Source of the DNA: Cyanobacteria bacterium auto_48_18
Lineage (GTDB): Bacteria; Cyanobacteriota; Vampirovibrionia; Obscuribacterales; Obscuribacteraceae
NCBI GenBank assembly: GCA_036170915.1
Contig: JAVHQC010000022.1
Coordinates: 32,001 to 96,000, forward strand
Length of the DNA stretch: 64,000 bases
Direction: 5' to 3'
This document shows positions 1 through 9,369 of the stretch, piece after piece (within the stretch, counting starts at the first letter, position 1; each line of letters starts with the position of its first letter). Below the pieces are notes generated by a model that saw only the letters and a program-made list of their open reading frames with translations, did no database searches and was not told the DNA's origin. The position numbers and the translations under genes were made by a program.

Positions 1-259
1 CACTTTTGGCCATACCATGCAGCCATTTTTGCATAGTCAGATAGGTTTGCACTTCGGTGCTGAAACTGAGATGCAAAATAGCGAACGGTTCAGCAGGCAG
101 TTTTGCCAGAGTTTCTTTGATTGCGTCTTCGCGGTTGGCATAGCCTGTGAGAATCTTTCCTGCGGCATTGAGCAAGCCGTTTTTGAAAGAGCCTTCGCGA
201 TCGCAAAAAATCGATTTAGCGGTTGAGCCGATGGTCGGCACATAAATTACGGTTTTCAT
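1..259 (-). CDS. hypothetical protein, partial (runs off left edge)
   Basis: Open frame from ATG at 259 (MKTVIYVPTIGSTAKSIFCDREGSFKNG...) to the window edge with an A-rich leader; not in the supplied ORF track. Confidence 0.7.
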   Translation of the reverse strand, partial: MKTVIYVPTIGSTAKSIFCDREGSFKNGLLNAAGKILTGYANREDAIKETLAKLPAEPFAILHLSFSTEVQTYLTMQKWLHGMAKS

Positions 260-323
260 GATTTGCTTTTTTTGTTTGAGAATTGTTTTGACTTTCGAGC
301 CGAGATTGAAGAGCGATCAGAAT

Positions 324-503
324 TCAGGGCTGCATGTACGGCCGGTAGAGGCGCCTTAGCACACAGAAGCCAGCCAGGTAGAAGACCACTCCCAGAAGGG
401 GGCCCAACGTGCCCAGTGTGCAGAGCCAGATCGAGATGAAGACCACAATAACAACGCCAAGTATGGCGCCGAGCATCAATGCGATGTACTTGAGATAGAG
501 CAT
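324..503 (-). CDS. small membrane protein (59 aa, 2 TM)
   Basis: ATG at 503 (MLYLKYIALMLGAILG...) after leader ATTCACTAAAAAAATAGAC; two hydrophobic segments. Confidence 0.6.
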   Translation of the reverse strand: MLYLKYIALMLGAILGVVIVVFISIWLCTLGTLGPLLGVVFYLAGFCVLRRLYRPYMQP

Positions 504-724
504 GTCTATTTTTTTAGTGAATGAAACAGGCGTGCACCGGTTTCTCAAAAACTAAGAGAAAAAGCGAAGAGATTGGAGCTAATACTTACTTTGCTTGCTG
601 AGAAAGAGGCTTAGACCTGGTATTTCTTTAATTGGAGAATATGCTTTCACCCTACGTACAATGGCGGCTGGCTACAAGGCAATATTGCCGCTAATGCAGC
701 ATTTAAGAGCAATTCCTTACTGCT

Positions 725-750
725 CAACTGAGTTACTTAACAATAGCGCC
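725..750 (+). repeat. left copy of 26-bp inverted repeat
   Basis: CAACTGAGTTACTTAACAATAGCGCC; 25/26 identical to the reverse complement of 7386-7411. Confidence 0.9.
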
Positions 751-756
751 TTGCAG

Positions 757-2028
757 TTAGTCGGGTTGCGCCTCGCGCGCCTTGGCTAAATCTGCTTCGG
801 CATGTTTTTCATCTTTCATCAGACGATAGAGATGAGCGCGACCTTGATAGGCTTCTTTGGCGGCGTTAGGAGAGCGATTGATTGCTGCGGTGTAGTCGGC
901 CATGGCTTTGTCATATTGCTTGAGGGCTTCGTATGACTGAGCGCGCCCGATGCGGCTTGGTTCAGAATCTGGATTGGCTTTTAGGGCGTGGGTAAATTCT
1001 GCGATTGCTTTAGGATACTGTTTGCCCATAGCCTGATAAATGGCGCCGCGTGTCTCGTAGGCGACGTTTAAATCTGGATTTTCGGCAATAACTAAATTGG
1101 CATCAGCCATGGCTTGTGCCAATTTTTTTGTTTTCCGGTAGCAATCCGCTCGCAACAGCAGGGCCACGGCGCGATCGTTTTTGGCGATGGTCTTCGTGGA
1201 GCTAACTGATTCTGCTTTCTTGCATTGCTCGATTACCGAGCCGGCATCTTTGATGGCGGCAACATAGTTTTTCTGTTTGTAGTAACTGATGGCTCGCTTT
1301 AACTCGGCTCTGCGTCCCAGTGTTTGATCCGAATCTGTTTTTCCTAACTTGATGGCTTGGTTGAAGTGCTCGATTGCTTTTTTCTGATCGGCTGATTTTT
1401 GTAAAAGGTTACCGATATGTAGATGCAGCGCTGCACTGGGTGTAGCAGCCACCTGTGCGGTGAGATAATCTATAGCACCTTTGATATTTCCTTCTCTTTC
1501 GAGATCATTGGCTTTGGTGTCGATCACATCAGTCAGCAGTTTTTGCTGACGGGCTGGGCGCAACTTGATGTATTGCTGCATGTCGGCATTGGCTTCTTTG
1601 AATTTGCCTTGTTTCCGATAAGCAATGGCTCTGTTGTGATAAGGCATGGGCGATTTAGGATTGAGCTTTATCGCCGTTGTGTAATCAGCTACAGCTTTGT
1701 CCATTTGATCGCTCATGGCATAACAAAATGCACGCCTGTCGTATGCGTCAGAAAGTTTGGCATCAAGGCGAATCGCTTCGTTAGCATCTTTCATTGCCAG
1801 GTCGTATTGATCAAGATCAACGTATTCAGCTGCCCGTTCAGCGAAAAATCCAGCATTGCCGGCCGCTTGTTTCTCAACAGACTTGAGAATCTGCATGGCA
1901 CTTGCCACTTTTTTTTCTTTTCGCAGCTTGTAGGCTTCGATGACGGCTTTGTCAACAATACGGTCTGCAAAGGCAGCTTGATTTGAAAATAGCAACGCTG
2001 CACAAACTAGGGCTACTTTGTTTCTCAA
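757..2028 (-). CDS. exported tetratricopeptide repeat protein
   Basis: Signal peptide (ALVCAALLFSNQAAFA); many TPR units (AVADYTTAIKLNP, AMADYTAAINRSP); GGAG before TTG start. Confidence 0.9.
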   Translation of the reverse strand: MRNKVALVCAALLFSNQAAFADRIVDKAVIEAYKLRKEKKVASAMQILKSVEKQAAGNAGFFAERAAEYVDLDQYDLAMKDANEAIRLDAKLSDAYDRRAFCYAMSDQMDKAVADYTTAIKLNPKSPMPYHNRAIAYRKQGKFKEANADMQQYIKLRPARQQKLLTDVIDTKANDLEREGNIKGAIDYLTAQVAATPSAALHLHIGNLLQKSADQKKAIEHFNQAIKLGKTDSDQTLGRRAELKRAISYYKQKNYVAAIKDAGSVIEQCKKAESVSSTKTIAKNDRAVALLLRADCYRKTKKLAQAMADANLVIAENPDLNVAYETRGAIYQAMGKQYPKAIAEFTHALKANPDSEPSRIGRAQSYEALKQYDKAMADYTAAINRSPNAAKEAYQGRAHLYRLMKDEKHAEADLAKAREAQPD

Positions 2029-2152
2029 TTTTTCTCCAGGGCGATGCGGCTATTATTTTAGCGCATAAGCCAAAATTGCAACGGAGACCGGCTAGTCAAA
2101 GGCATCCATACTACTATGCGGATGCGTAGATGATGGCTTTTTAAAAGATAAA

Positions 2153-2191
2153 AGTAAAAAAGAGGTTGATTGGTTCAACCTCTTTTTTACT
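2153..2191. terminator. bidirectional intrinsic terminator
   Basis: Perfect 17-bp inverted repeat AGTAAAAAAGAGGTTGA-N5-TCAACCTCTTTTTTACT just after the stop at 2199. Confidence 0.8.
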
Positions 2192-2198
2192 GAATACA

Positions 2199-2468
2199 TC
2201 AATCTTTGTCGCGAATGTATTCAACCACCAGGACGATGATGAAAGGCAGTAAGAATCGCCATTGCATACCAAAGATGGCAAAGGCAATTAGTGCCAGGGC
2301 GTTGTAGACAAAAGATGTTATAGCCGCTCTTGCAACCTTTTTAGCATTGGCCTGCTTAATCCAATCGAGCGGGATGATTGGACGCACAAAGCGCAGGACG
2401 GGCTTACTGACAAAGTAAACGATAACCAGCGCAAGGATAGCCAGAACGAGTGATGCGATTGAGTTCAT
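2199..2468 (-). CDS. small membrane protein (89 aa, about 3 TM)
   Basis: ATG at 2468 (MNSIASLVLAIL...) after A-rich leader; hydrophobic segments. Confidence 0.7.
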   Translation of the reverse strand: MNSIASLVLAILALVIVYFVSKPVLRFVRPIIPLDWIKQANAKKVARAAITSFVYNALALIAFAIFGMQWRFLLPFIIVLVVEYIRDKD

Positions 2469-2549
2469 GTTTTTGATTTGTTTTTTTTGTGAATTAAAAG
2501 AGGAGTTGAACATCGGTTCAACTCCCGGTTCTCTAATAACGTAGTAGCG

Positions 2550-3347
2550 CTAATTCAAATTAACGGTTAGCCAGGGCAAGTTTTTCTGCACGAGCTCGCT
2601 GATGAGCCCGCTAACTACAGCTGCAGCTGTCATTCTGGCGGTTTTGTACTCATTGCTTTTCTGCAGTCCGTTGAGGTCTGGTGTATTCATCCCGGTCCTC
2701 AACATCTGGCCGGTTCGCCAGCTCAATGATACTAACTGACCGGCTGTAACCAGGTCACAGGCGCAGGAGCAGATTGAAGCGATTGTCAATGCCTCGTTGT
2801 CGTCGCGCCTGATGGCGTCTTTCTGAAAAGTAGCGGCGAAACGGTCTGCCAGGAGCCACGCTGCTCTCAAGCGTGCACGTTGGCTTCTGTCGGCTTCTTC
2901 GGCAATGACATGCAGATAGTCCTGTTTGCCTCTTGAGTGAACAGGCAGACAGAGTAATTTGTCGTCGGTCATTTCCAGCAATGCTGCGTTATGCAGTGCG
3001 GTTTGCCGTTGCGCCATGATTTTGCCCAAAAGTGCATTAACGGCGTTCAGTCCTTCAGCCACTCCTAGTGAGCGAGCAATGCGATACTCCCACTGTTCAC
3101 TGTCGGGCAGCTCTTCCATTTTCTTCAGCTCGCGAAAGGCAACGTCAAGTTCAGTGTCGATGCATGTGGACAAGTCGTTTGCCATGTCGGTCAGGCAGAG
3201 GCCGATGAAGAAATAGATACGCGCCTTCTTGTCGGCGGGAATTTCTGCTTTAGCAAAGACGTTCTTGAATTCGCGAATATGCATCCGCTGGTGGTCGTTT
3301 TGAACCCGTACCAGGAAAAGCTGGCGGTGAGCGATTCTTTCGTTCAT
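2550..3347 (-). CDS. hypothetical helical protein
   Basis: 265-aa ORF, A-rich leader, no recognisable motif. Confidence 0.75.
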   Translation of the reverse strand: MNERIAHRQLFLVRVQNDHQRMHIREFKNVFAKAEIPADKKARIYFFIGLCLTDMANDLSTCIDTELDVAFRELKKMEELPDSEQWEYRIARSLGVAEGLNAVNALLGKIMAQRQTALHNAALLEMTDDKLLCLPVHSRGKQDYLHVIAEEADRSQRARLRAAWLLADRFAATFQKDAIRRDDNEALTIASICSCACDLVTAGQLVSLSWRTGQMLRTGMNTPDLNGLQKSNEYKTARMTAAAVVSGLISELVQKNLPWLTVNLN

Positions 3348-3397
3348 GTTTGTGCATTTTTAAAGTGTTAAACAATCAAGTAACTGCTGAATGCACG

Positions 3398-3652
3398 TTA
3401 CGAAACAGGCTGAATCAGGTAATAATTCCCGTCGCTGTGGTCAGGTACTAGGTCATATTTCCAGCCTTGGCTTTCAATTTCAGCCAGTAGTTTTGCTTCC
3501 GTTTTTTTCGTTTTGAAAGCGCTTTGACTGAAGGTAAAAGCCTTTCCACCTTTTTGCAGAGCAATAGCAATAAGGATGCGCCTGATATAGGTGGTATTGG
3601 TCTCTTTTTTGTGCGCAGCCCGAGCCTCGGCTGGTGTTGGAAATGTGTTCAT
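3398..3652 (-). CDS. small hypothetical protein (84 aa)
   Basis: ATG at 3652 (MNTFPTPAEARAA...) avoids overlap with the upstream gene. Confidence 0.65.
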   Translation of the reverse strand: MNTFPTPAEARAAHKKETNTTYIRRILIAIALQKGGKAFTFSQSAFKTKKTEAKLLAEIESQGWKYDLVPDHSDGNYYLIQPVS

Positions 3653-3737
3653 AATACAAATTACATTTGTGATGCTGGAAGCATAGTTTGCTCCCAGCAT
3701 CATTTGAAAAATGTTGTTACTAAATCGGAGGCTAATC

Positions 3738-4634
3738 TCAATTGTTGCGAGGGCCAGCGGGGCCTGGTTGCGGACTATCTGACGACGGTGCACGATGACC
3801 TTGCTTCTCCACTTCGGTAATTGAGCCGTAAGCCATAAATGCATCGCGTACCATAGAGTTGCATGCACCAGCTACGGTGGCGGCGGTCATGGCATAGGCT
3901 AGCAGCCACTGCTTGCGAACGCCGGCGTCTTTGGGTGACAAATCGCCAATCATAGCTATGGTGTTGATAGAGACATCAGCAAGGCTCACGGCCTGAGCAA
4001 TTACCTTTTTGCCAAAGTCGATAATTTCGCGCAAAGTTTGCACTTGCACTCGACCTTCAAATGATTGGTCTTCAGGCACGAAATAATTGGCGCTGACCTC
4101 GTTTGAGCAAATGGAAAGCTCTCCGACGATTGAATCGACCACGTTCCGCAGCATCTTCAGTTGTGCATTGACTGCACCATCGTGCGGTCCCATAGCTTCA
4201 TTTGAAACCTTCTCCTCTCCGCGGCTGAGGTTACCTACAATAAAGGTGCTTGCATGCAGCATAAATCCATTTACCCGGCTCAAAAGTTCGTTACCGATGA
4301 TTTGCGCGTGAGCCAACACCTTGATTTTAACCAGCGCTTCAATAATGAGCCGTTCTTTCTCAGTGTCGTCATTGGTGGCATAAACTTGCCCACTTAATGA
4401 CGTTACTTGTTGGCTCAAATCGCCGCATTGTATTTGCAACCAATCGCGCTGGTCCAGTACTTTCAAGCCAGCGTTAATCAGCACAGCCGTGCGGTGGTCA
4501 TGCTGTTCCGCTTGGAAGCCTTTGAGTATTTGCCTCAGCGCACTGCCCTGCGAATCAAGCTCTATGTGTGAAGAGCCGCGGTGCGAGAGCGAGAGCACCA
4601 TCATTAAGTCTGTTATTTTTTCTTTGCTAAACAT
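3738..4634 (-). CDS. hypothetical helical protein, possible paralogue of 2550-3347
   Basis: 298-aa ORF; C-terminal QxVSL...MTAAxV motif shared with 2550-3347. Confidence 0.75.
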   Translation of the reverse strand: MFSKEKITDLMMVLSLSHRGSSHIELDSQGSALRQILKGFQAEQHDHRTAVLINAGLKVLDQRDWLQIQCGDLSQQVTSLSGQVYATNDDTEKERLIIEALVKIKVLAHAQIIGNELLSRVNGFMLHASTFIVGNLSRGEEKVSNEAMGPHDGAVNAQLKMLRNVVDSIVGELSICSNEVSANYFVPEDQSFEGRVQVQTLREIIDFGKKVIAQAVSLADVSINTIAMIGDLSPKDAGVRKQWLLAYAMTAATVAGACNSMVRDAFMAYGSITEVEKQGHRAPSSDSPQPGPAGPRNN

Positions 4635-4690
4635 CTGCTTTAAGCTTTAAATGGTGAATAAATAAAAGAGATTGCCGGCGGTGTTCCGCG

Positions 4691-5164
4691 TTACGCTTCA
4701 GCATCACCGAACAGAAGCTGCAACTGAGAAAGCAGCATTTGTTCAGAAATGACCGATTCTTCAAACAGCGCATGCGAAGGGTTACCGAGCACCGGGGTGT
4801 CATAACCAATCATAATGCCCGAAAGAAGACCGGAACTGAGGAAGTTTTCGACCTGCTGGCCCTGCACCACTGGTACTTGTTCTGCCGTAATCATCGAGCG
4901 CAAGATGGCGGTTTGCACCAGATCTGACTGAGGGACCTCTGCTGTAAGACTGTCGTAGTCAGCTTCAGACAAGGCACTGAAAGTCAGCACCGCGGCCAAT
5001 ACCATTGAGCGGCTGCATTCGCGAGCAAGCCTCTGGCTCTGGTAATCAGTTAAGAAGCAATTAGCGGCTGCGACCAGTTGTTCGTTGTTGTACTTTGCGA
5101 GTTGAGCAATCATGATTGTAAGTTTTGTGCACAATGAGTCATCGTCATCGTGCTGGTTAAACAA
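4691..5164 (-). CDS. hypothetical protein
   Basis: 157-aa ORF filling the gap in a co-oriented gene run; TTG start. Confidence 0.65.
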   Translation of the reverse strand: MFNQHDDDDSLCTKLTIMIAQLAKYNNEQLVAAANCFLTDYQSQRLARECSRSMVLAAVLTFSALSEADYDSLTAEVPQSDLVQTAILRSMITAEQVPVVQGQQVENFLSSGLLSGIMIGYDTPVLGNPSHALFEESVISEQMLLSQLQLLFGDAEA

Positions 5165-5208
5165 ATTTTTTAAAAGCTTTTCCCTTCTTAGGAATTAAAA
5201 TTGGAGGC

Positions 5209-5260
5209 TAACCAATGAACCAGATTTGCGGCTAACTGCCCAAGTCTGATCCATTGGTTA
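5209..5260 (-). other. long intergenic RNA stem-loop after the S1-like gene
   Basis: TAACCAATGGATCAGA...TCTGGTTCATTGGTTA on the minus strand; 16-bp stem including G-U pairs. Confidence 0.6.
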
Positions 5261-5275
5261 TTCCCCAAAGGCAAT

Positions 5276-6484
5276 TTACTTCTTCAGATAATCTGCCATT
5301 TGCCTGCGACCCAGAGCAATACGTGAGCCATCAGCTTCCATGCTCAGAATCACCACTTCTGTCTGCTGGCCAGGCTGGAAAGTTTCTTTCTTGCCACCAG
5401 CAGTGTTACCCAGGTCGCTTACGTGCAACAGCCCTTCAACACCGTCTCCAATGTGAACAAAGTAACCGTAGACTTTCGCTCTAAGAATTTGCGCTGCAAC
5501 AACCATGCCGGGTTCCAGCATTTTTAGTGTGCGTTTCTTGCCAAGCGATTTCATCGAGAACGAGATGCGCTGTAATTCCGGCTGTACTTTGGTTACTTCC
5601 ATTTCGATGGTTTCACCGATTTTCAGCACTTCGTTGGCTTTGTTGCGTGGATAGCCTGCTACTTCGGTGCGGTAAATAAGACCGGTGATGCCGTTGCCGA
5701 TAGTCACCAGAACACTCATGTCGATGTCGTTCTTCGCGGCTTTGATGAACTTAATTACGGTGCCGGTTACTGCATCTCCAGGGCTGTAGCTGGCGATTTC
5801 TTTGCTCAAATTTTCTTTGGCAGCATCTCTCTGGCTTAAAACCAGGTAGCCGAATTCACCGCCTTTATGCGGATCAACGCCCTGAATCTTGGCGGTTATC
5901 ACCGTGTCCACCATGGCCTCGGCGTCAGTGCCAGGGTTCAGTTCACTGTTAGGAATAAATCCACGCACACCTTTCAGCCCGTCCGATTCAAAGACAACTC
6001 TTAAACCGGCCGCCCTCCTCGTGCGCCTGTCGGTTGCCAGAGCGAATACTCTTACGCTTACTTGCTCGCCGGCTTCGTTGATTTCTTTCAACTTTTCCCA
6101 TGCTTTGGCCTGCACATGTGATGCGGTAACGATGCCTTCGTCATTCTTGTCTGAGGTGACAAAGAAGGTTTCGTTGTCTCCGATTTCCAGGTTGCCGGCT
6201 TCTGCAGCAGGAATGAACGCATCGTACTTAAGGCCGATGTTGATGAAGATACCCTTCTTGTTCTTGATGGTCACTTCACCTTGAATGAAATCTTTGCGGC
6301 CAGGATTGGCTGCAATGTTTCTGCCTTCAAGAAGTGCCGTCATCTGCTCATGCTGCAGGGCTGCGGTTTCCAGTTCACCAGGTTCAAGGAATGCAGGGTC
6401 GATTGTTTTCAGGCGATCGTAACCGAACAGTTTTCTGTTTGCATTTTTGGTTTTCTTTGCTGTTTTTGCATTTGCGTTTGCCAT
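5276..6484 (-). CDS. rpsA: ribosomal protein bS1-like protein, about 4 S1 domains, divergent (possible paralogue)
   Basis: S1 repeats: GIFINIGLKYDAFIP, GVRGFIPNSEL, GITGLIYRTEV...LKIGETIEMEV...RISFSMK, YGYFVHIGDGVEGLLHVSDL...RIALGRRQ. Confidence 0.8.
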   Translation of the reverse strand: MANANAKTAKKTKNANRKLFGYDRLKTIDPAFLEPGELETAALQHEQMTALLEGRNIAANPGRKDFIQGEVTIKNKKGIFINIGLKYDAFIPAAEAGNLEIGDNETFFVTSDKNDEGIVTASHVQAKAWEKLKEINEAGEQVSVRVFALATDRRTRRAAGLRVVFESDGLKGVRGFIPNSELNPGTDAEAMVDTVITAKIQGVDPHKGGEFGYLVLSQRDAAKENLSKEIASYSPGDAVTGTVIKFIKAAKNDIDMSVLVTIGNGITGLIYRTEVAGYPRNKANEVLKIGETIEMEVTKVQPELQRISFSMKSLGKKRTLKMLEPGMVVAAQILRAKVYGYFVHIGDGVEGLLHVSDLGNTAGGKKETFQPGQQTEVVILSMEADGSRIALGRRQMADYLKK

Positions 6485-6665
6485 GTTGTTTAAAATTAGT
6501 GCTCGTCAGAGCGTTTAAAAATAAAGCCCCTGTGCATCGTTAATTGCTTAACGCCGCAGTTTTACGCCATTTGCACCTCGAGTTACGAGTTACAGAGTCG
6601 TCTTCAGGTGGGGATAACTGAATGTTTTCAATAAAAGAAAATTGTGTGTTTAGAGACCGAACCGA

Positions 6666-6953
6666 CTAATTGCTGTGCTTATCGACAATCAGTTTTTGCA
6701 GTTGACGTTTTGCCCGTGCAGGTAAATGCTTGCCGAAGCTAAGACCACTATTCAGCAGTTTGCCGAATTTGGTGTCTTCATTTGTAAGCTGTGAAGCGTG
6801 AGCAAAAATCTCCTTAGCGCTAACCGGGTATTTGACGGCAAAGAGCACTTCTTCTTTTTGCTGTTTGCGTTTGCGATTTACGTAGGTAGCGTGACCAACA
6901 ATTAAGGCGGTGGCGGCGAAGGCCAGAAGGGCGATGAAATTACTACTTTTCAT
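6666..6953 (-). CDS. small protein with N-terminal membrane anchor
   Basis: 95 aa; hydrophobic N-terminus followed by a basic stretch. Confidence 0.65.
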   Translation of the reverse strand: MKSSNFIALLAFAATALIVGHATYVNRKRKQQKEEVLFAVKYPVSAKEIFAHASQLTNEDTKFGKLLNSGLSFGKHLPARAKRQLQKLIVDKHSN

Positions 6954-7385
6954 GACTGAAATTTTTGAGGTGAATAAATGTTTGAAATCTGTTTGAAAAT
7001 TGCTGACACTTTCCCATCTCCTCAGACGGAAGATTCGGATATGCGGTGGTGGCAGTGACTTGGGTTTTGAAGGTTTTTTTTGAATCTTGCGGAGAGGTGG
7101 TGATTGAGTTATGTCACTACCCTAATGCTGCAGCGCTGTAGATCAAAGGAATTTTGGGCCGTTACTCGCTCAGACCGAAGGCAAGCAAAAAAGGCACAGG
7201 CGCCTCAATGCCGCTGCGGGGCCAGTTTTACCTCTTTAATAGAAGAATATCTGTGGGCATCTTCCCATGGCCTTTTGCCTTTGTAAACTGACTTGGATGC
7301 TGCTAAACAGCAGGCTGGCGGAGACTTGACCCGCTGACTAAAGTGCGCGAAATTCCACCGTCTGGGCGTTTCCTTTGTGTGATAT

Positions 7386-7411
7386 GGCGCTAATGTTAAG
7401 TAACTCAGTTG
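7386..7411 (-). repeat. right copy of 26-bp inverted repeat
   Basis: Minus strand reads CAACTGAGTTACTTAACATTAGCGCC; one mismatch to 725-750. Confidence 0.9.
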
Positions 7412-7515
7412 CGGGAGGCGCTCAACAGTTGTTGGCAGGGCCTTTTAAGATCTTTCGAGGGGCTCGGTGAGGGCCAGATCGTCGCGGGTTATAATGAAGG
7501 CTCCCGGGTTTATTC

Positions 7516-9369
7516 ATGCGATTTCCACAGCTCAAACTTTCGCACAAAGGCATATTGATGGTGGCGCTTCCTCTGGCTATTCAGGGTGGGGTGTACCTTA
7601 AGCTGAAAAGCGATCTGGCTCATCTTGAGCGAGAAACACGTGAGCTTGACGTGCGGCGTGACATCGTCAATCGCGTAAACCAAACTCTGCTTTATACCTT
7701 TTATGGCTTTCAATCGTTGATGCAGTTCAAGCTTTACGGCAAGAAAAGCAGTCGTGTTTATTTTGAGACGTATACAAAAAATCTGATCAAAGAAAATGAC
7801 GAACTGGCCGACATCATCGACAAAACTGAAGGTGATAAAACTAAAGGTGCCAGGCTGAGATTTCTTTCCCGTGACTACATTGTCGCCTTGAAAGAGTCTC
7901 AGTTTAATCCTGACGAGCAAAATCAGTTCGCTTCTATCACTGATGATTTGCTGCGTAATATTCACTTTCGTGACGTTTCGCGTGAGATGTTCACCGCCCT
8001 CAAAGACTTAGGTTTGGCAGAACAAGCCCGAGTTACTTATGCATCAGGCCGTGAAGAAGCTTATCGAAAGAAAGTACAGCAAGCCACTGATATGACAGTG
8101 CTTTTTAACGCTATCGTGGCACTTCTGCTGGCGATTGTTTTTGTGCGCGGCACGGTGGCAAAGCTTAACGTGCTAAAAGAGAATACAAGACGATTTGCCG
8201 GCAGCAAACCCTTGCTGGAGCGCCTTAACTCCACCGATGAGATTGGCGAGCTGGATAGCTTTTTCCATACCATGGCCGAAGCTCTCAATGAAGCGCGCTT
8301 GAAAGAAAAGTATATGAATGCGCTTCTGCAAGACAGCAAAGAACGCCTGGAAAATTTGATCAACAATATTCCAGCGGCCCTTGTGGTAACTGACGAACAA
8401 GGCCGCATTCAGTCTCTTAACCCCACCGCGGAAAAGCTTTTTGGTTATACCAATGACCAATTGATTCAGCAGCCTGTGGAAAAACTTTTTGCCAGACTGA
8501 GTAAAGGTGAGTCTCTATTCGAAAAGCTCAATAGTGGCTCTGGGGGGCATCCTGTTGCACTGGAAGGCCTGTCGTCTGATCAGGAAATCATCGCGGTGGA
8601 AGTAACGGCCACTCATTTTGCTGGACCAGATGGAAAAAGTATTCTTGCTACTATTATTGATGTCACCGAGCGTTATCGCCTCGAGGCGCTTAAACACGAG
8701 TTCTATGCTATGGTCAGTCATGATATTCGTACTCCTCTTACCACCATCAGCGGTATCTTGCAGTTGGCCCGCATGGGCCGCTATGGCGAAGTCAACCGCG
8801 AGCTGGCTGCGCGTTTTCAGGTGGCAGAAGATAACACGCATCGCTTGCTAGAGATGGTCAACAAACTGCTTGATCTGGACAAACTAGAAGAAGGCACAGT
8901 CGAGCTGCTACTCGAGCATGTGCCGGTAAAGTTTGTGGCCGGTGCAGCAATTGGCTCTACGCTGGCTCAGGCTGAGGCTAAGCAAGTGACTATTTCATGC
9001 ATTGATCGCAATTTGTCAGTTATGTGTGATGCTCACTATTTGACTCAAGTGATGACCAATTTGCTCGCTAATGCCATCGGTTATTCTCCTGCCTGTGGCG
9101 CCATTTTAATTGAGGCCCAAGAGCAGGCTGGAGGCCGCTTTGTTTGTATCAGTGTTAGCGACCAGGGCCCGGGCGTGCCTGAGGCGGCCAGAGCAACGGT
9201 TTTCGAACGCTTCAAGCAAAGCGATGTGCGGCGCGATCGCAAAAGTGGTTTTGGCCTTGGCCTCTCAATATGCAAAACCATAATTGATTTGCACGGTGGG
9301 CAAATCGGCGTTGATACCGCATCTGGTGGCAGCGGTGCCAGATTCTGGTTCAGGCTGGCAAAAGGCTAA
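7516..9369 (+). CDS. membrane sensor histidine kinase (2 TM, HAMP, PAS, HisKA, HATPase)
   Basis: DEIGEL HAMP motif, H-box VSHDIRTPL, N-box NLLANAI, DQGPG, GFGLGL. Confidence 0.95.
   Translation: MRFPQLKLSHKGILMVALPLAIQGGVYLKLKSDLAHLERETRELDVRRDIVNRVNQTLLYTFYGFQSLMQFKLYGKKSSRVYFETYTKNLIKENDELADIIDKTEGDKTKGARLRFLSRDYIVALKESQFNPDEQNQFASITDDLLRNIHFRDVSREMFTALKDLGLAEQARVTYASGREEAYRKKVQQATDMTVLFNAIVALLLAIVFVRGTVAKLNVLKENTRRFAGSKPLLERLNSTDEIGELDSFFHTMAEALNEARLKEKYMNALLQDSKERLENLINNIPAALVVTDEQGRIQSLNPTAEKLFGYTNDQLIQQPVEKLFARLSKGESLFEKLNSGSGGHPVALEGLSSDQEIIAVEVTATHFAGPDGKSILATIIDVTERYRLEALKHEFYAMVSHDIRTPLTTISGILQLARMGRYGEVNRELAARFQVAEDNTHRLLEMVNKLLDLDKLEEGTVELLLEHVPVKFVAGAAIGSTLAQAEAKQVTISCIDRNLSVMCDAHYLTQVMTNLLANAIGYSPACGAILIEAQEQAGGRFVCISVSDQGPGVPEAARATVFERFKQSDVRRDRKSGFGLGLSICKTIIDLHGGQIGVDTASGGSGARFWFRLAKG

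Follow-up and report, generated by a model that had tools for sequence, protein, structure and literature searches.

Split leaders without a Shine-Dalgarno sequence in a gene cluster beside a second ribosomal protein S1 gene

The stretch of DNA considered here, the window, comprises 64,000 nucleotides (nt) from Cyanobacteria bacterium auto_48_18, a member of the Obscuribacteraceae, an uncultured group related to the cyanobacteria (assembly GCA_036170915.1, contig JAVHQC010000022.1, positions 32,001 to 96,000; in our numbering G000:C22:32001-96000). G000 denotes the genome that holds the gene cluster in question, the other G-numbers are other genomes, and g-numbers are genera. The cluster lies at the left end of the window and is a co-oriented minus-strand run of ten genes, mostly orphans, that lack a Shine-Dalgarno (SD) sequence; one of them encodes a second version of ribosomal protein bS1, which we call S1b. 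A preliminary description of the window had quoted eight leaders from this run that share the pattern (ATT)CAC-N13-20-ATG. These leaders, their spacers of 13-20 nt and the positions of their ATG codons are letter-correct on the minus strand, and they indeed have no SD (0-3 G in positions -20 to -1 and a free energy, dG, of 0 for the duplex with the anti-SD). The pattern is present as quoted, but it is incomplete, because the ATTCAC motif covers no more than the 5′ half of what is a split element. Two further genes belong to the list, namely the one that starts at 5113 and a gene of 106 amino acids (aa) to the left of the window (G000:C22:31498-31818).

All features of the run are on the minus strand and are described here from high to low coordinates. 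The run may be preceded by a sigma70-like promoter at 7119..7146 (TTGATC, 16 nt, TAGGGT), a weak candidate suggested by analogy with a hexamer pair upstream of S1b in relatives and not listed by a consensus scan. The first gene (6666..6953) encodes a 95-aa orphan with a hydrophobic N-terminus, for which Pfam, NCBIfam and PHROG gave nothing above cut-off (ratio of nonsynonymous to synonymous divergence, dN/dS, 0.31 and 0.24). Its leader (6954..6979) has no hairpin, such that the 5′ arm ATTTATTCACC (6969-6979) is joined directly to a 15-nt G-poor arm (6954-6968), and the orthologues have the same form. The next gene is S1b (5276..6484), a divergent four-domain bS1 of 402 aa, whose split leader (6485..6524) was delineated in a 22-genome alignment and consists of a U-rich 5′ arm (6513-6524), the hairpin GCTC/GAGC (6501-6512) and a 16-nt 3′ arm (6485-6500). 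It is followed by a 140-aa orphan (4691..5113; dN/dS 0.11 and 0.08), whose start, judging by orthologue starts, is the ATG at 5113 and not the TTG at 5164. The leader of this gene (5114..5165), which the preliminary description had overlooked, is again split, with the 5′ arm TTTGTTTAACCA (5154-5165), a 25-nt hairpin (5129-5153, -10.2 kcal/mol) and a 15-nt arm (5114-5128). A 298-aa orphan (3738..4634) has undergone gene-wise replacement, with a synonymous divergence (dS) of 1.66 to G232, as compared with 0.25-0.52 in most of its neighbours. Its hairpin-less leader (4635..4666) has a U-rich arm ending in TTCACC and an 18-nt arm, and G232 keeps the 5′ arm despite the replaced N-terminus of the gene.

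The third split leader (3653..3713) belongs to an 84-aa orphan (3398..3652) and contains a U-rich arm (3702-3713), a strong 31-nt hairpin (3671-3701, about -22 kcal/mol) and an arm of 18 nt (3653-3670; 15 nt in G232). Two hairpin-less leaders come next. One (3348..3376; 5′ arm ATTGTTTAACAC, 17-nt arm) precedes a 265-aa all-helical orphan (2550..3347), which is the most constant passenger of the cluster (26/301 genomes; g1, g7, g26 and g19), and the same 5′ arm stands before an unrelated hydrolase gene in g7. The other (2469..2497), made up of TTTTAATTCAC and an A-tract with zero G in -20 to -1, precedes an 89-aa predicted membrane orphan (2199..2468). A terminator-like 17-bp hairpin (2153..2191) closes these first seven genes. 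The run is then interrupted by a gene for a TPR protein (757..2028) that is SD-led (dG -6.4), has its own promoter-like site (2052-2081) and stands outside the style. Beyond it lie a 59-aa predicted membrane orphan with a hairpin-less leader (324..525; gene 324-503, leader 504-525) and a 126-aa orphan (1..290) that starts at 259, has a G-poor leader (260-290) and extends past the window to G000:C22:31879. The 106-aa gene beyond the window edge follows, with a leader of the same kind. The genes of the style are separated by intergenic gaps of 50-181 nt.

The genes themselves are real, with purifying selection in 12/12 genes compared with G232 (dN/dS 0.05-0.39) and start positions backed by orthologue N-termini. 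For the 89-aa gene, an SD-led ATG further upstream, at 2513, falls within a hairpin and in G232 is not in frame. In the 265-aa family, Met1 and Glu3 are invariant among 14 aligned members. This family comprises 21 clusters among 1.84 billion proteins, with no remote relatives among them; a fold search gave generic helical bundles (best Z 8.3) and no viral fold at E below 0.001, and there was no usable Atlas match for the 265-aa protein and none for the 298-aa protein.

The absence of an SD has to be seen against the habits of the host. G000 uses SD sequences, as among 1363 unambiguous starts G peaks at -8 to -11 and GGAG, GAGG and AGGA are the most enriched 4-mers. The five genes that the preliminary description had set against the cluster (2028, 9529, 13295, 14974 and 40162) do carry an SD (dG -6.4 to -10.8 kcal/mol), and in the ribosomal-protein cluster of G000 (35 called genes) 60% have a dG of -4.4 or lower and 6% are without SD. 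The end of the 16S rRNA, unassembled in G000, has a normal anti-SD in 4/4 relatives where it was found, and a search for an altered anti-SD found none. Nevertheless, lacking an SD is in itself ordinary, with a dG above -2 in 31% of 4256 leader-blind starts of G000. Likewise, a loose CAC-N13-20 precedes 482 of these 4256 starts, whereas ATTCAC-N13-20 precedes only 16, of which 3 are in the cluster. SD-poorness was not above average in short genes or in genes after long gaps.

It is the combination of features that sets the cluster apart. At blind starts, the mean G content of its leaders is borderline (P 0.035-0.17 across three window sizes), and it was dropped as a sole discriminator, since a mixed-strand housekeeping stretch on C36 is equally G-poor. 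The other G-poor stretches of G000 are likewise made up of mixed-strand housekeeping genes and have no common motif. G-poorness combined with CAC reaches P 0.16 with windows of 8 genes, 0.012 with 10 and 0.002 with 12. A leader model was also trained on 55 non-homologous genes (14 families) from three other genera, from which 16 homologues of cluster genes had been dropped beforehand. With this cross-genus model, the cluster stretch ranks first in G000 (mean 3.04 vs 1.89 for the next), and 0/2000 permutations reach its score (maxima 1.82 +/- 0.21). The style thus clusters at this locus and is neither the norm of the genome nor that of its ribosomal-protein genes; a genome-wide norm would have spoken against the preliminary description.

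Read side by side, the leaders reveal one design. A U-rich arm with A(A/C)C(C) at its end may be followed by a hairpin, and a G-poor arm of ~15 nt that starts with A(C/U)AA then leads to the AUG. Examples of the 5′ arm are TTTATTCACC and TTGTTTAACC. The hairpins measure 20-49 nt, are mostly closed by G-C pairs, and differ in sequence between gene families and in strength between genes. Where the hairpin is missing, the two arms are joined, which yields the ATTCAC plus A-tract that had first been noticed. In the window, the hairpin form is found at 6484, 5113 and 3652.

The geometry of this element was examined by picking hairpins of -12 kcal/mol or stronger while ignoring the sequence of their flanks. 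In cluster genes, 42 of the 53 picked hairpins end 14-16 nt before the ATG. All three flank features, whose patterns were formulated after the leaders had been seen, are present around 32/53 cluster hairpins, as compared with 0/56 for flanking genes and 0/31 among 500 random G000 genes; keeping a single gene from each 50%-identity group leaves 7/16 for the cluster and 0/25 for controls. A fixed split-leader rule gave 31 matches in the 26 clade loci from which it had been written, and none in 64 control loci (28 other extra-S1 loci, 7 flanking loci and 29 rpsA loci). On 10 held-out loci it found 3 matches, 2 of which are orthologues of known leaders. A pattern of sequence only, run over 101 genomes, was rejected, as its matches in 42 of them are about the rate of a reversed control; among six of its matches outside known clusters, one is a true split leader (in G270) and five are not at called starts.

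The hairpins also covary. In the S1b leader (22 genomes), 94.5% of the cells are paired and double changes occur at 3/5 pairs; 0/500 shuffles were as high, and controls slid along the alignment gave 35-46%. The length of this leader varies by one or two bases, so it is not coding. The 5113 hairpin (9 distinct rows, one genus) is paired in 96.7% of cells, with double changes at 3/10 pairs, 0/500 shuffles as high and all slid controls exceeded. For both hairpins, kinship inflates the shuffle control. The average pairing profile over leaders has no more than a dip at -16 to -9, as many leaders are without a hairpin. An Rfam scan of window positions 1-7600 gave 7 matches with E up to 5, none near a gathering score and none on the leader element. 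The hairpin of the 3652 leader precedes three different gene families in different genomes. This hairpin holds in-frame ATGs in G000, G232 and G096 and none in G072 or G084 (window 3398-3868, 3738-4634), such that the longer open frame is probably incidental. Separately, in g7 the gene after S1b (L057:10617, L058, L059, L060, L061) has, ~40 nt upstream of its start, a hairpin closed by GGAGG/CCTCC, in which an SD-like sequence is locked by an anti-SD-like one.

The S1-like gene of the cluster is a second, fast-evolving four-domain paralogue of bS1. The housekeeping rpsA of G000 lies elsewhere (C9), and the two proteins are 26-30% identical. The predicted model of S1b has an N-terminal helix and four OB domains (pLDDT 80.4); its best Foldseek match is bS1 in a 30S complex (E 3.7e-24), and a PDB profile search returned E. 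coli bS1 at E 1e-84. S1b stays below the rpsA equivalog cut-offs (best 138.5 bits vs 524; PRK06676 112 vs 368). In bS1, an N-terminal helix and domains 1-2 provide the anchor on uS2; in S1b, helix 37-52 aligns with E. coli residues 3 onward but has only ~10% identity to the helix region of the host rpsA. Within the genus, rpsA is 99-100% identical and S1b 65-93%; over the family, full-length matches are 83-100% identical for rpsA and 31-93% for S1b. The nearest relatives of S1b fall into 19 clusters (44-100% identity), some of them labelled Obscuribacterales or Melainabacteria, after which identity drops to 27%. At E 1e-40, S1b is found in 34/96 genomes of its own family and in 0/204 genomes of ten other families of the class. 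A profile run on 151 genomes of the phylum has its best matches in the same class and none in other classes at E 1e-62.

In a tree of 56 rows (a quick search with support by the Shimodaira-Hasegawa-like approximate likelihood-ratio test, SH-aLRT, only, and with long branches among the extra S1 copies), the 12 copies from g1, g26, g7 and g22 group together as a clade with SH-aLRT 99, nested among the family's extra S1 copies. Within this clade, g26 is sister to g1, the same order as suggested by rpsA identity. Loop insertions in domains 2 and 3 are characteristic of this clade (8/8 clade rows, 0/7 other rows). The mRNA of S1b itself carries the split leader.

Extra S1 copies are common in the family, and many of them lie beside trmD. 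Genomes of the Obscuribacterales family have up to four or more divergent extra S1 genes each (G240, G268 [L114-L119], G286 [L128], G057:C4, G274:C97 and others), and the trmD-adjacent gene, found in many genera, is an ancestral-looking copy. A few genomes of the family have a longer form with a frame of about 550-590 codons. Further S1 paralogues are found within clusters. In g26 these are two-domain versions of ~200 aa whose split leaders are very strong, and in g7 a 360-aa copy that has diverged greatly lies upstream in the cluster (L053:5387-5989, L054:10683-11294, L057:5938-7017, L061:12446-13528). In 10/14 aligned genomes (G096, G084, G270, G258, G240, G268, G278, G246, G196 and G292), a conserved sigma70-like hexamer pair, 18 nt apart, lies 130-150 nt before the S1b start, and the cluster and a histidine kinase gene are often divergently oriented.

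The S1b clade thus spans four genera, and it heads such clusters while the passenger genes differ. We compared, at blind starts, the next four co-oriented genes after S1b with the other genes of the same loci. The mean G content after S1b is 0.111, 0.10, 0.117 and 0.125 in g7, g22, g26 and g1 (32, 7, 6 and 44 genes), as opposed to 0.229, 0.221, 0.253 and 0.207 for the other genes, and in each of the four genera the SD fraction after S1b is 0-9% vs 28-35% in the rest of the loci. Neighbours of six trmD-linked extra S1 copies have no such contrast in G (0.262 vs 0.247). The passengers in relatives include orphans, an alpha/beta hydrolase, a PF04020 protein, an SPFH protein, an AAA protein and further S1 fragments; those that can be named are largely from membrane and protein-handling families. 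Single genes are replaced while their neighbours stay, as seen from a second dS value of 0.92 to G232 besides the 1.66 mentioned above. The preliminary description's view of the run as a module with its own style of translation initiation is therefore supported. The style clusters here, and in four genera it turns up again beside members of this S1 clade, although the genes there are for the most part not the same.

Some genomes resemble natural experiments. In G270, the cluster genes are spread over three loci. One of them, apart from S1b, holds a 588-aa membrane gene with a full split leader and then a gene homologous to 259 of the window; at another, genes 3347 and 3652 have their homologues. 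In G240 and G286, where members of the same membrane-gene family lie at other loci, their leaders are of the SD type, as opposed to the split leader in G270. G057 has neither S1b nor the 265-aa gene.

In E. coli, the thrS leader is a bipartite site, in which an unstructured start region and a U-rich stretch lie on either side of a hairpin and docking needs bS1 domains 1-3 (PMC3858243). The cluster leaders resemble it in having a start-proximal unstructured segment and an upstream U-rich segment with a hairpin looped out between them. However, the thrS site includes a weak SD, and its hairpin serves as operator for a single gene, whereas the cluster leaders, with an anti-SD duplex dG of 0 in 10/10 and hence no SD of the thrS kind, have an optional hairpin of free sequence, flanks common to unrelated genes, and a second S1 encoded alongside. 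In E. coli rpmE, too, a hairpin that acts as operator sits between the start region and an AU-rich bS1 enhancer further upstream (PMC10931766); this again is a single gene, with an SD and with the housekeeping bS1 as reader. Synechocystis, of the same phylum, likewise has two S1 homologues, Rps1A and Rps1B, which have been linked to SD-independent initiation (PMC8136920), and the passages of that paper considered here mention no co-located target cluster. In huge phages, an S1-like gene correlates with SD-poor genes and was proposed to favour their translation (PMC7162821). The cluster differs in being chromosomal and apparently vertical across four genera. It comprises no more than about ten genes of a genome that otherwise uses SD, its leaders have a defined structure, and no phage hallmark genes were found. 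A further comparison is offered by specialised ribosomes with a bS21 paralogue or without bS21 in Francisella and Flavobacterium, in which small-subunit composition alters the leaders that are translated (PMC9578407, PMC9976891); there, a different protein acts on the anti-SD pocket, whereas here an S1 paralogue lies beside its candidate targets. Finally, non-SD genes of several phyla have C/A signals near -15 and U near -25 (PMC5397173). Each piece thus has precedent, and the module as a whole is best likened to a thrS-type split site without SD. A full-text literature search, to which most subscription papers are inaccessible, found no paper on an S1b/split-leader module.

Comparison among genomes shows the design itself, its fixed distance to the AUG, the pairing of the hairpin, the confinement to loci of one S1 clade and the presence of the element on the S1b mRNA. 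That the element is a selected RNA signal is very likely, and it is probably a signal for initiation. Since a hairpin of any sequence is tolerated and its distance to the AUG is nonetheless fixed, it would seem to act on the RNA at the upstream edge of the ribosome. The cluster would then be a small regulon defined at translation initiation, with each gene having its own SD-free leader of one design. From known bS1 biology, one can envisage that the ~15 G-poor bases lie along the upstream part of the mRNA path on the 30S subunit, that the hairpin is looped out and stays outside the 30S, and that S1 OB domains grip the U-rich arm, as in the bipartite site of E. coli thrS. The reader would be mainly the co-encoded S1b, most likely by swapping with the housekeeping bS1 on the 30S; in a variant, S1b might deliver the leaders off the ribosome. 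In either case S1b would switch on the translation of its own mRNA and of the passengers. We rank this reading first, though at no more than even odds, namely that S1b is the preferred reader of an S1-docked, SD-free split ribosome-binding site common to a regulon; in favour of it are the co-occurrence of the two, S1b's own leader and the altered loops of the clade. The earlier proposal that the co-encoded S1 homologue may serve the module fits the co-occurrence and S1b's own leader, but G169 keeps two such genes and no paralogue was found there.

A bolder version, which we put forward only tentatively, is that of a second translation channel, in which ribosomes loaded with S1b would show a preference for starting at the split SD-free leader, while those with the housekeeping protein would read this leader poorly. 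The leader on the S1b mRNA might then form a self-reinforcing switch, and genes could join the regulon by gaining the leader as a reusable cassette. If this were true, S1b would be to ribosomes roughly what an alternative sigma factor is to RNA polymerase.

Several observations weigh against S1b as the dedicated reader of a leader of this kind. The four genera are kin, and there is one origin in all. In G169 (92% complete, 40 contigs), two cluster genes are retained, both with G-poor leaders of the hairpin-less form, while a multi-domain extra S1 was not found in this assembly, and the cluster copy of the membrane-protein family in G292 retains GAGG. Many extra S1 copies stand alone, so that an extra S1 needs no such cluster. 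About a third of host genes are without SD regardless, and A/U-rich SD-less leaders are ordinary substrates of the housekeeping bS1, as two studies indicate (PMC10931766, PMC5397173). In G000, the hairpin form is found in only 3/10 leaders, and the strict rule gives 6 matches in the whole genome, one of them in the cluster. Lastly, leaders are reused between genes, and their similarity may therefore partly reflect shared descent.

These points lead to the alternative that the housekeeping bS1 reads the split sites and that S1b is a co-regulated passenger, or a repressor or chaperone that binds the element, which we judge possible though rather doubtful. The leaders kept by G169 without an S1b found would fit, as would the much faster evolution of S1b than of rpsA. 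What is reported in parts of the literature also agrees with it, namely a loose specificity of bS1 for U- or AU-rich leaders (PMC10931766) and, in one study, the failure of the cyanobacterial Rps1A and Rps1B to co-sediment with ribosomal subunits (PMC8136920). It leaves unexplained, however, why one design keeps to the loci of a single S1 clade and hardly occurs in the remaining 4.9 Mb of the genome, and why the S1b clade has its loop insertions.

Stem-loops are known to process and stabilise transcripts, and a cleavage in the U-rich arm might leave a 5′ hairpin that stabilises each cistron within a long transcript and sets protein ratios, with SD-lessness being secondary. The single-stranded U-rich stretch immediately 5′ of a stable hairpin, the long intergenic gaps and the gene-dependent hairpin strength would all suit such a mechanism. 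We nevertheless regard it as improbable, because the distance of the hairpin to the AUG is fixed at 14-16 nt and because the 5′ arm occurs without a hairpin in 7/10 G000 leaders.

Comparably improbable, and slightly more so in our view, is that the style is the legacy of an old phage or island that came from an SD-less lineage together with an S1 of its own, in the way suggested for huge phages. An acquisition from a lineage that does not use SD sequences had been suggested in the preliminary description, and this part of it found no support. The orphan-rich content, the gene-wise turnover and the holin-like PF04020 and SPFH passengers in relatives would be in line with it, and huge phages with S1-like genes seldom have SD, according to PMC7162821. 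Against this, S1b nests within the extra S1 copies of the family with genus-like branching, and coding GC and hexamer scores of the cluster are host-like. A PHROG scan of 29 proteins returned only PagP-like, esterase, AAA, SPFH and one unknown family and no structural phage families, and no relatives were found among viral contigs. Searches for homologues of an SPFH passenger and of the 126-aa orphan pointed to no donor lineage, and the 265-aa family is without remote relatives. Furthermore, the style persists at synonymous divergence near or above 1, so that it is maintained and not decaying. A very old acquisition of the cluster is conceivable. The S1 matches in a phage collection have 25-36% identity. 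One that was inspected, L164 (MW495066.1:10461-16865), comes from a record named Microcystis phage and has ispH, rpsA, rplU, rpmA, ruvA and ispD in a row; its DNA looks like bacterial chromosome.

The inverse core of integron attC sites has the consensus RYYYAAC. GTTTAAC matches it and genes are gained and lost one at a time, but signals at the DNA level, be they attC sites, promoters of leaderless genes or terminators, are very improbable, as the coding strand of the G000 cluster has no RYYYAAC...GTTRRRY pair within 40-130 nt, the A-rich 3′ flank of the hairpins is found in both orientations and a terminator U-tract is thus lacking, a hairpin of 20-49 nt can be inserted between arm and AUG, which a -10 box would not tolerate, and a separate promoter-like site lies far upstream. 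No integron integrase was among the 14 window and 56 relative proteins in a Pfam scan, and no search aimed at integrases was made.

Whether ribosomes of different make-up serve chosen mRNAs is a long-standing open question, and it is rare for a candidate case to include a known signal on the targets. In this cluster, the paralogue of a ribosomal protein, a precise design of leader and candidate targets are co-located and persist across four genera, which makes the question directly testable. That SD-free initiation has a fixed geometry of 15 bases here and tolerates a hairpin also bears on how S1 positions the start codon, and the leader could serve as an orthogonal translation part.

A few minor observations concern other parts of G000. 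To the left of the window, a PagP-like gene (G000:C22:29826-30398) has ATTCAC 22 nt before a G-poor start and may be an outlying member of the run. Two isolated genes, at G000:C22:156644 (+) and C1:43942 (-), have TCAC plus A-tract leaders that resemble the hairpin-less form. Finally, G000 carries two arrays of nine tRNA genes each (G000:C33:15652-16458 and 164122-165603), with tRNA-Sec on C16.

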